This document shows, in pieces, positions 58,151 through 60,100 of a stretch of DNA of 64,000 nt. Below the pieces are notes generated by a model, which saw only the letters and a list, made by a program, of their open reading frames with translations, had not been told where the DNA came from and ran no database searches. The first letter of the stretch is position 1. Each line of letters opens with the position of its first letter. Made by a program: the position numbers and the translations under genes. The stretch lies in contig CBDAVG010000002.1 in the NCBI GenBank assembly GCA_965200865.1, positions 1,583,942 through 1,647,941 on the forward strand. The letters are read 5' to 3'. The stretch is from an uncultured candidatus Porisulfidus sp. GTDB taxonomy: Bacteria > Pseudomonadota > Gammaproteobacteria > Poriferisulfidales > Oxydemutatoraceae.

Positions 58151-58547
58151 GGGTATTGAAAAAATGTTTCATACACCGTAGAGAGGCTAACATGAGACTG
58201 TTGAAAAAGCACTGCTCCTGCAGATATTGAACCACCATGTGCCATTGAATTTACGAAAACGGTAGGGGAGGGCTAACATGAAGCTGTTGAAAAAGTGTCT
58301 GCATTAGTACATTCCCCTCCTGTGGAGGGGTGGCAGGCGCAGCCTGACGGGGTGGTTGTTAAGGTTCTGAACAATGTCACGCCGATTGACCTACTGGCTC
58401 AATCGGCAGTTCTATTTTTCAACAGTCCCACATGCTCTCCCGAAACGCGTTGCGTCTACAAAAACAATCCATTCATTCATTTTATTGACGGTAAACATAA
58501 TCTGTGGCGCAAGCGGTTTTGTTCGTGCAGAATGATACTTTAGGGAG
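58151..58547. repeat. Mosaic repeat cluster C6 (left of the IS)
   Basis: Three GTTGAAAAA-type termini (58156, 58199, 58285), the CCCCTCC-TGT-GGAGGGG hairpin (58314-58330), the GCCGATTGA/TCAATCGGC hairpin unit (58363-58414) and TTTTTCAACAGTCCC (to 58429). The left half of a family-V module follows, ending TACTTTAGGGAGG. Confidence 0.85.
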
Positions 58548-58551
58548 GGCA

Positions 58552-58822
58552 GGTATATTTAACTATGGCTTATTTGATATAAGATAAACGCTTAGGTAGA
58601 TGCAGTGCCTAGGAAGTCGGAGGAGACACGCTCAAGAGAGGATTAGGCATTAAAGCCTGTTAACATGATAAGCACTCCTCCGGCGTTATGACTATAGAGC
58701 TCGTAAGGCAGCTTGGGACTTTAGATCTCGTATTTACCTGTTTGGGCGGCGTAGTCATACTTTCCTAAACTCTGCTTGATACCTAGTAATTCATTCATTC
58801 AATAACTATTATGGAGGAAATT
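58552..58822 (+). ncRNA. Candidate bridge (guide) RNA region in the IS110 non-coding left end
   Basis: A ~270-nt non-coding stretch lies upstream of the recombinase ORF, against ~57 nt downstream. It contains 6-8 nt matches to both target flanks and both IS ends (details in findings). Confidence 0.35.
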
Positions 58823-59812
58823 ATGGTGAAACACAAACAACCTGCCGCAATCGGCATTGATGTCTCTAAAGACACTTTAGAGGTGGCATTATTATTCGTT
58901 GACGAGAGTTTCTCGGAAGCACAATTTAGAAATAATATCAAAGGTATTAAACAGCTGTTAGCTTGGCTTGCCGAACAGGGCGCAAAGTGCTGCCCGATCT
59001 GCGTTGAAGCCACTGGTGGCTTGGAGACAAACCTTTGCGAGCGAGCTTCCCGGGCTAAAAATCCGATACAGGTGGCACCCCCGGCTCAAGTTGCCTATTT
59101 TCGCAAAAGTCTTAATATGCGTAATAAAACTGATGGCGATGATGCGCGCTTAATTGCACGCTTCGCAGTGTCAAACCCTAATTATCGGTGGACCAGTTCG
59201 TCACAGGCTATCCAGACCTTGAAGGATGCTCTCAAACGCAGACACAAACTGACATTAGCGAAGACGATGTTAAGGAATAGTGAAAAGACTTTGCGCACCG
59301 CTGGACAAAAGCGCAGTGCGGCTGCAGACTTGAGACACCTTGAGCAACGCATCGATCAGATTGATGCTTCAATCGAAAGGCTTATTGCCGAAAACGAACA
59401 ACTTGCACAGACCTGCAAATTATTGTGTTCGATACCCGGTATCGGTATGCAAATCGCAGCCACCCTGTGTGCAGTATTAGATGATAATACGTTTGAGCAT
59501 CCCAAGCAACTCGCTGCTTTTATCGGCATCGCACTAATGCGCAGACAATCCGGCAACTGCGAAGCACGGGCTCATATCTCTAAAATTGGCAAACGCTGCC
59601 TACGCACCGCTTTGTTTATGGCGGCACTCTCGGCACGGCTTCATAACCCCATTATCCGCGACTTTGCCAACCGCTTGCAACGCCGACGCCCGGAGTTAAG
59701 CAAAAAGGAAATCATTGTCGCTTGTGCACATAAGCTCGCCCGTATTATTCATGGAGTACTCAAGCACAATAAGCCGTTTGACCCGCGTCATGAGTGTCCG
59801 GCTGCGGCCTAA
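58823..59812 (+). CDS. IS110-family DEDD recombinase/transposase
   Basis: ATG 58823 is preceded by GGAGG (58813-58817). N-terminal RuvC-like DEDD domain (AIGIDVSKD..., VEATGG, DGDDARLIA) and C-terminal Transposase_20 domain (IPGIGMQIAATL..., SKIGKRCLRTALFMAAL). Confidence 0.92.
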   Translation: MVKHKQPAAIGIDVSKDTLEVALLFVDESFSEAQFRNNIKGIKQLLAWLAEQGAKCCPICVEATGGLETNLCERASRAKNPIQVAPPAQVAYFRKSLNMRNKTDGDDARLIARFAVSNPNYRWTSSSQAIQTLKDALKRRHKLTLAKTMLRNSEKTLRTAGQKRSAAADLRHLEQRIDQIDASIERLIAENEQLAQTCKLLCSIPGIGMQIAATLCAVLDDNTFEHPKQLAAFIGIALMRRQSGNCEARAHISKIGKRCLRTALFMAALSARLHNPIIRDFANRLQRRRPELSKKEIIVACAHKLARIIHGVLKHNKPFDPRHECPAAA

Positions 59813-59871
59813 ATAGATATTCAGAAAAGGAGATAAAAAATGAGTAAAATGACTTGATTTTAAATAAGGCA

Positions 59872-60100
59872 TCATGTTAGCCCTCCCCTACCAGTTGCAT
59901 AAATTTTATGGATAAATGGATTGTTTATACAAGGATGACGCGTTCGGGTGGTTTGCGTGACTTGGTGGCGCAAGCGGTTCTGTTTGTGCAGAACGGTACT
60001 TTAGGGAAGGCATGTTAGCCCTCCCCTACGGGTGGTTATCATAAATTCAATGGCGCAAGCGGTTGAGTTTATACAATAGCGGTACATTTTCAGCAGCCTC
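59872..60100. repeat. Mosaic repeat cluster C7 (right of the IS)
   Basis: Starts with the right half of the interrupted family-V module (CATGTTAGCCCTCCCCTAC...), followed by a second, intact family-V copy (~59962-60060) and a degenerate terminus ATTTTCAGCAGCC. Confidence 0.8.

Follow-up and report, generated by a model that had tools for sequence, protein, structure and literature searches.

A CA-core IS110-family insertion sequence in the loop of a repeat hairpin of Candidatus Porisulfidus, and the bridge RNA predicted in its left end

The DNA analysed here – hereafter the window – is a 64,000-nt stretch of contig CBDAVG010000002.1 (positions 1,583,942 to 1,647,941) from the genome of an uncultured Candidatus Porisulfidus. 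Our subject is an IS110-family insertion sequence within it, the hairpin repeat that this element splits, and the RNA that its left end is predicted to encode. The element lies in the spacer between a tRNA gene (downstream of rpoD) and xni. This spacer measures 1,990 bp in the window (58121-60109), where repeat modules, a miniature inverted-repeat transposable element (MITE) and the IS110 element fill it entirely; two of the sister genomes have ~5 bp in its place, and another has ~350 bp. An orthologous empty hairpin was sought in the sister genomes; they lack the 2-kb repeat block altogether and so offer no empty site at the level of the hairpin. The absence of the block indicates that it was added, insertion sequence included, in the lineage of the window. 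The insertion is defined by the following features.

58543-58549, + strand: left target (LT) GGGAGGG, the 5′ arm of the split hairpin and part of GGGAGGGCATGTTAGCCCTCCC; a flank identical at 17 of 17 copies
58550-58551, + strand: left CA core dinucleotide, the crossover site, shared with the empty site and assignable to target or element
58552-59874, + strand: IS110-family insertion sequence, 1,323 bp, with the same junctions in 16 near-identical copies and one diverged copy
58823-59812, + strand: recombinase gene, 329 residues, with a ribosome-binding site (GGAGG) at 58813-58817; assigned from domain and structure matches
59873-59874, + strand: right copy of the CA core, shared with the empty site
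59875-59887, + strand: right target, consisting of the remaining hairpin loop TGTTA and the 3′ arm GCCCTCCC; a flank common to the copies

The insert occupies 58552-59874 (or, equally, 58550-59872) and splits the hairpin repeat GGGAGGGCATGTTAGCCCTCCC, whose stem is a strong 8 bp and within whose loop the crossover falls. Unsplit, the repeat is found in the genome 117 times exactly, 161 times with three substitutions or fewer, and 126 times with an exact 16-mer across the site. The empty site and the two junctions have only CA in common, the junctions reading ...GGGAGGG-CA|GGTATATT... on the left and ...AAGGCAT-CA|TGTTAGC... on the right. An initial annotation of this DNA, made from the letters alone, had recognised an IS110-type insert between two halves of a hairpin repeat, and an open reading frame with PF01548 and PF02371 domains does lie between the half-repeats. 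It had set the junction at 58548/59872 and had noted GGCA at both ends. The repeat is indeed split and GGCA is indeed present twice; the true junctions, however, lie 3 nt further to the right, and CA alone is duplicated when the empty site is taken as reference. Both slips trace to the copy chosen as a model of the intact repeat (53771-53792): it lacks one G of the genome-wide consensus, with the result that the junctions came out 3 nt off and GGCA looked duplicated. Joining the flanks, a test that the annotation had itself put forward, restores the repeat consensus exactly once the boundaries are corrected. A crossover in the GGCAT common to target and donor was also considered and was rejected, since the left junction that it predicts, GGGCATCAGG, is not observed.

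The reading frame between the junctions (58811-59812) has 333 codons. Its second ATG, at 58823, is the likelier start, because GGAGG stands 6 nt upstream and the database cluster representative is 329 residues long, the length that this start would give. The product matches PF01548 (DEDD_Tnp_IS110, 3.8e-18) and PF02371 (Transposase_20, 7.1e-22), scores 213.7 bits against a cutoff of 140 with NCBIfam NF033542 ('IS110 family RNA-guided transposase'), and is matched over its full length by the structure of the IS621 recombinase (PDB 8wt6, E=1.2e-38), in agreement with the DEDD/Transposase_20 recombinase of the IS110 family that had been proposed. D13, E62, D104, D107 and S253 align with the catalytic positions of IS621. 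Sequence identity to IS621 is nonetheless ~34%, plasmid-borne relatives are all at or below ~35%, and among the 41 relatives searched the recombinase is restricted to the genus of the window, a genus of sponge symbionts.

Evidence that insertion is specific to this hairpin comes from the other copies, found by a BLAST search with the insert as query in the genome to which the window belongs (2.56 Mb, three contigs). There are 16 full copies at 99.2-100% identity and one that is diverged (~71% overall, with a protein 64% identical); a few fragments exist besides. All 17 full copies share both position and orientation, with junctions ...GGGAGGG-CA|GGTATATT... and ...AATAAGGCAT-CA|TGTTAGCCCTCCCCTAC (also read as GGGAGGG-CA|GGTATA... 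and ...GGCAT-CA|TGTTAGCCCTCCCC), and in all 17 the reading frame is open. Flanks and orientation shared by every copy are far beyond chance. The initial annotation had pointed to the flanks of other copies as a decisive comparison, and every one of them consists of the same half-hairpins; its assertion of sequence-specific insertion without classical inverted repeats also holds, there being one site, one orientation and no long terminal inverted repeats. Together with DEDD and Tnp domains that include the Ser, and a short repeated core, these are traits of the IS110 family.

Could such uniformity arise passively, through duplication or recombination of a larger repeat unit that already held the element, so that the junctions are merely fixed parts of it? 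Mosaic repeats abound in the genome, and at every copy the adjoining ~40 nt on either side belong to repeat sequence. Past the hairpin module, however, the flanks diverge among copies, which occupy at least three different repeat contexts; 161 hairpins stand empty; and in the sister genomes sibling elements lie in a hairpin type of their own. Moreover, the 16 near-identical copies are dispersed and have intact reading frames, a pattern that fits recent transposition. Passive spread is in our judgement hardly credible.

The non-coding left end is 272 nt long and the right end 62 nt, and they contain the following.

58554-58559, + strand: −10 box TATATT, the counterpart in joined ends of the right-end −35 box TTGATT
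58556-58562, + strand: left subterminal inverted repeat TATTTAA, with its partner at 59860-59866
59854-59859, + strand: −35 box TTGATT in the right end, predicted to be used only in joined ends
59860-59866, + strand: right subterminal inverted repeat TTAAATA
59866-59872, + strand: left donor (LD) AAGGCAT, the terminus of the right end

In the joined right end–left end (RE-LE) sequence, TTGATT, a 17-nt spacer and TATATT would make up a promoter that is rebuilt across the junction. The integrated copy has a hybrid promoter, formed by the flank hexamer ATGATA, 16 nt and TATATT; most other copies have the poorer ACGGTA as their flank hexamer. The subterminal repeats co-vary, the pair being TTTAATA/TATTAAA in the elements of one sister genome (G003). 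As an observation apart, the 11-mer GGCATCAGATA occurs six times on the + strand of G000:C2, where the full RE-LE junction of the diverged type is absent; this 11-mer may be an unrelated repeat.

The remainder of the left end is predicted to encode a bridge RNA. Its computed fold comprises a 5′ stem-loop followed by two modules, in each of which an internal loop separates a basal stem from an apical hairpin.

58566-58775, + strand: predicted bridge RNA, ~200 nt; 5′ end placed from the −10 box, 3′ end from the limit of conservation
58591-58613, + strand: 5′ stem-loop of the consensus fold; one A-U pair is replaced by G-C in a compensatory change, and three changes on a single side leave the pairing intact
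58616-58684, + strand: target-binding loop module of the predicted fold, with 10-bp and 3-bp stems, an internal loop and an apical hairpin (58645-58658)
58633-58644, + strand: left target guide (LTG) CAAGAGAGGAUU, on the 5′ side of the target loop, in the sense of the LT top strand
58659-58667, + strand: right target guide (RTG) GUUAACAUG, on the 3′ side of the target loop, pairing with top-strand CATGTTAGC (core and hairpin loop)
58668-58669, + strand: AU, a candidate handshake guide for the target loop on the IS621 model; its complement is the AT at positions 6-7 of the donor
58687-58759, + strand: donor-binding loop module of the predicted fold, with 9-bp and 5-bp stems, an internal loop and an apical stem-loop
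58704-58713, + strand: left donor guide (LDG) UAAGGCAGCU, on the 5′ side of the donor loop, in the sense of the right-end terminus TAAGGCATCA
58731-58740, + strand: right donor guide (RDG) UAUUUACCUG, on the 3′ side of the donor loop, pairing with CAGGTA at the left-end terminus

The computed RNA thus has two internal loops and four guide segments that fall on the strands prescribed for target and donor. The RTG pairs with CATGTTAGC through eight Watson-Crick pairs and one G:U wobble over its nine positions. For the LTG, comparison with the bottom strand of TTAGGGAGGGCA gives six Watson-Crick pairs and one wobble over 12 nt, the first two positions being unpaired. The LDG has seven contiguous matches plus the C of the core, UAAGGCA being the last bases of the right end. 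Within the RDG, UACCUG makes six contiguous pairs with CAGGTA, and two more follow, ungapped, past one mismatch; read by eye from the sequences, the pairing could be discontiguous, with two U skipped. A handshake rule for the two bases 3′ of each right guide has been described for IS621 (PMC11208158), and the UU 3′ of the RDG, able to wobble-pair with target positions 6-7 (GG), would appear to fit it. The left guides mostly have CU or UU where CA is expected, which would leave the second core base unpaired on the bottom strand. In the stems of the donor module, pairs 139/183 and 154/166 vary on one side with pairing kept.

The disposition of these parts bears on the subgroup to which the element belongs. 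A left end of 272 nt facing a right end of 62 nt, with both loops at 58616-58759, is the layout of the IS110 group, in which a long left end encodes the bridge RNA (PMC11208160). The other placement would be in the IS1111 group, whose guide (seek) RNA lies in the right end and whose subterminal inverted repeats are long. In its favour, the ATA...TAT of the window's element is part of a 7-bp repeat (TTAAATA/TATTTAA), and 7 bp is the minimum quoted for the IS1111 group, whereas repeats of 2-3 bp are given for the IS110 group (PMC11208160). Given that both binding loops are predicted in the long left end, we consider an IS1111-group element very improbable.

Further evidence comes from comparison of guides and targets among seven element variants in four genomes of a single genus, Ca. 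Porisulfidus; metagenomic relatives (P0002-P0018) exist at 50-64% identity. Across the seven the RNA region retains a mean column identity of 93%, whereas the recombinases are 58-64% identical to that of the window, and nearly all of the variation in the RNA region falls within guide segments. The same is seen on comparing the main and diverged copies of the window's own genome, which are 85% identical in the bridge RNA region but 66% in the reading frame and 60% in the linker. Guide bases change together with the DNA that they would read. Right targets TTA, CTA, CAA and CCA are paired respectively with RTG UAA, UAG, UUG and UGG; element starts GGTA and GATA (the right donor, RD) go with RDG UACC and UAUC, those beginning CAGATA carrying the compensatory UAUCUG; and left target GGGCGGACA goes with LTG GGACGGACA (or ...CG), as GAGGGCA does with GAGGGCU. 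The LTG match is far better in the sibling variants than in the window's element. The genomic distribution of targets follows suit: hairpins of the GGGAGGG type number 152 and 178 in the two genomes whose elements have matching guides, and 0 and 0 in the other two, whose elements carry guides for a GGGCGGAC-type hairpin that is itself present in all four genomes.

These comparisons also bear upon the nature of the signal that is recognised. It is conceivable that the recombinase reads the hairpin DNA itself, through its structure or through protein-DNA contacts, and that the complementarity of the left end is incidental or only regulatory. The target is, after all, a strong 8-bp hairpin with the crossover in its loop; the LTG of the window's element is weakly matched and short matches alone carry little statistical weight; and in ISPpu10 a target stem-loop is reported to add specificity (2026 preprint, 10.64898/2026.03.19.712850). 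Yet among siblings the guide positions shift in step with variants of loop and stem while the RNA scaffold stays fixed. The diverged sibling of the same genome is telling in this regard: it occupies a hairpin variant, CATGCTAG, and its RTG has the matching A-to-G change. The recombinase, furthermore, belongs to a family in which RNA-guided target choice has been demonstrated. Recognition by protein in place of RNA is in our view unlikely; the hairpin may make a structural contribution on top of RNA guidance.

Several departures from the common pattern were seen among the variants and copies. In one genome (G004) a single variant with RTG GAUGGUAUG lies in three loops, CATGCAAGT, CATATCAGT and CATGCCAGT (loci L059, L063 and L071), with one or two mismatches in each, suggesting that in this lineage the matching of right targets is relaxed or drifting. 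At L073 (G003, OZ244779.1), around position 599-760, the conserved basal stem of the target module (GGAAGTCGGAGGAGACACGC ... AGCACTCCTCCGGCG) encloses a different, longer loop; TATAAT lies upstream, and neither a donor loop nor a recombinase gene is nearby. A 249-bp derivative sits in a hairpin outside the window, at G000:C2:1157009-1157254. There a complete left end, including the whole bridge RNA, runs directly into the right hairpin half (...AATTCA|TGTTAG). A deletion at a TCA microhomology has removed the right end together with the recombinase gene; what is left is a bridge RNA gene without a recombinase. Finally, partial tandem duplications of the start of the left end precede a full copy in two places, involving the first 57 nt at G000:C2:1957815-1957871 and ~77 nt at L067 (G001). 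Their joints are at GCAG and CA and the sites poorly resemble the target; they could be remnants of self-insertion with subsequent recombination, or could stem from slippage. We rejected the notion that the three rearranged copies record recombinase events at pseudo-targets: the sites bear poor similarity to target or guides, and microhomology explains them equally well.

The specificity of site and orientation, the empty sites, a recombinase whose family is known and whose catalytic residues are intact, the fold of the RNA, the complementarity of guides to DNA and their covariation together lead us to conclude, from sequence, that this is very probably an active member of the IS110 group whose target is selected by a bridge RNA of its own, encoded in the left end. 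For the circle, the transcription of the RNA and the chemistry of recombination we draw upon homology with IS621. The DEDD/Ser recombinase would excise the element as a circle, in which the joining of right and left ends would bring TTGATT (−35) to a distance of 17 nt from TATATT (−10) and so drive the ~200-nt RNA. The second internal loop would pair with the joined ends (donor ...TAAGGCAT-CA-GGTATA...) and the first with the repeat hairpin (target GGGAGGG-CA-TGTTAGC). Strand exchange at the shared CA would then leave the element in the hairpin loop, in one orientation, with CA on each side.

A number of results weigh against this interpretation. Next to the core the LTG is poorly matched, GAGAGGAUU against GGGAGGGCA giving five Watson-Crick pairs and one wobble of nine. 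On shuffling the left end, a 9-nt run against the target, that of the RTG, recurred in 72 of 2,000 shuffles and was the only uncommon one, the LT, LD and RD runs being not significant; with raw complementarity this weak, the case depends on the position of the guides within the fold and on covariation among relatives that are not independent. A scan of 58300-60100 with Rfam 15 (E up to 1) matched no family. A simple consensus score places the joined-end promoter (9/12) no higher than the hybrid promoter of this copy, and the idea that the joined-end promoter is the stronger of the two is, by that score, unsupported for this copy. The RE-LE junction, whether as circle or as tandem dimer, was not found in the assembly, although such an absence says little because circles are transient. 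The core, lastly, is CA in all variants, with right guides ending in UG, and is not the CT of the IS621-like clade; among IS621 relatives T at the second core position is described as almost invariant (PMC11208158).

This last departure invites a broader, and decidedly tentative, suggestion: that we are dealing with a natural lineage of bridge recombinases working on a CA core, in which a long RTG reads the single-stranded loop of an extruded hairpin, and in which changes to the target loop alone have moved the element between GGGCGGAC-type and GGGAGGG-type hairpins within one genus. We see this as possible, with the balance of probability somewhat against it. The CA core and the long, loop-covering RTG are in any case the variant features of the window's element. 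Engineered uses of bridge recombinases have been filtered to CT or GT cores; a recombinase this distant from IS621 (~34% identity) and using a CA core could, should it prove functional, widen the range of sequences within reach. The current understanding of the IS110 family is unchanged by our data: the mechanism was already known, and what is new is a distant member with a CA core. The siblings in four symbiont genomes do, however, provide a clear natural illustration of bridge-RNA targeting, for they keep scaffold and donor loop and vary only those guide bases that match the hairpin repeat of the respective genome.

The hairpin loop is not the preserve of the IS110 element. Termini of the GTTGAAAAA type are the inverted repeats of an IS1182-family element and of its gene-less MITEs, one of which lies in the same spacer.

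58280-58429, no strand assigned: 150-bp MITE with IS1182-type inverted ends GAAGCTGTTGAAAAA ... TTTTTCAACAGTCCC, in a reversed copy of the hairpin, with ACAT at 58276-58279 and 58430-58433

The chromosome has 821 occurrences of the motif CTGTTGAAAAA, and the CTAACATG|..CTGTTGAAAAA junctions reported at 58194/58195 and 58280/58281 are present as described. Insertion duplicates ATGT, giving GGGAGGGC-ATGT-[GGGRCTGTTGAAAAA ... TTTTTCAACAGYCCC]-ATGT-TAGCCCTCCC. Genome-wide, 123 left and 125 right junctions join the hairpin to an IS1182-type end, the paired ends lying mostly ~170 or ~275 bp apart, junction to junction. Coding elements with the same ends and ATGT flanks measure 1,815 and 1,650 bp and have reading frames of 576 and 521 residues; both proteins carry DUF772 and DDE_Tnp_1_6 (PF05598, 2e-24; PF13751, 1.4e-18) and are IS1182-type DDE transposases. 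Of the two explanations offered in the initial annotation, a shared hotspot at the CATGTTAG loop is supported by the insertion of the IS1182-family element and its MITEs at ATGT in that same loop, with a 4-bp duplication, while a fixed junction inside a larger repeat unit finds no support. Of the 161 hairpins, ~30 are situated 17-18 nt inward of an IS1182-type end, so that part of the target population is itself MITE-borne. The hairpin is a module of the mosaic repeats of this genome. One repeat hairpin is therefore a landing pad for two unrelated mobile elements, which helps to explain the growth of the tRNA-xni spacer to 2 kb. Elsewhere, at G000:C2:362579-380423 and hence outside the window, dozens of GGGCGGACATATGAGTCCGCCC hairpins follow one another at ~134-214 bp spacing over ~18 kb, on both strands, an arrangement suggestive of a repeat unit in large tandem arrays.

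Comparison with known systems places each of these elements in context. The GTTGAAAAA elements share with the IS1182 family the DUF772 and DDE_Tnp_1_6 domains, terminal inverted repeats of ~17 bp and a 4-bp target duplication; their enzyme and mechanism are unrelated to those of the IS110 element, and only the landing site in the hairpin loop is common to the two. An arrangement of this kind has a counterpart in Coxiella burnetii, where IS1111 inserts into palindromes carried by MITEs. IS1111 is likewise an IS110-family element whose target hairpin spreads via small non-autonomous elements, but it represents the other subgroup and has its guide RNA in the right end, whereas that of the window's element is predicted in the left. 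Insertion into hairpins resembling repetitive extragenic palindromes has long been known for the IS110 family (PMC11208160, its references 11 and 12). ISPpu10 of Pseudomonas putida, an IS110 element that targets such palindromes (REP; 10.64898/2026.03.19.712850), also has all of its insertions in one repeated intergenic palindrome and a target stem-loop beside the bridge-RNA match; there, however, the stem-loop lies 5′ of the site, LT is the 3′ arm and the core is CT, whereas here LT is the 5′ arm and a CA core lies in the loop. A further close parallel is with IS621 of E. coli, a bridge RNA system of the IS110 group (PDB 8WT6; Durrant et al. 2024, PMC11208160; Hiraizumi et al. 2024, PMC11208158). 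The two share a two-domain DEDD/Tnp recombinase of the same length with catalytic residues aligned; a long left end encoding an RNA with a 5′ stem-loop and target- and donor-binding loops (predicted in our case); a 2-nt core at both ends; a promoter split between right and left ends; and insertion into repetitive palindromes. They differ in that their proteins are ~34% identical, the core is CA here and CT in IS621, and the RTG here spans 9 nt and covers the whole hairpin loop as against 4-7 nt. In the window's element, furthermore, the left guides carry U where the core has A, the crossover falls in a hairpin loop and the subterminal inverted repeat is 7 bp in place of 2-3 bp.

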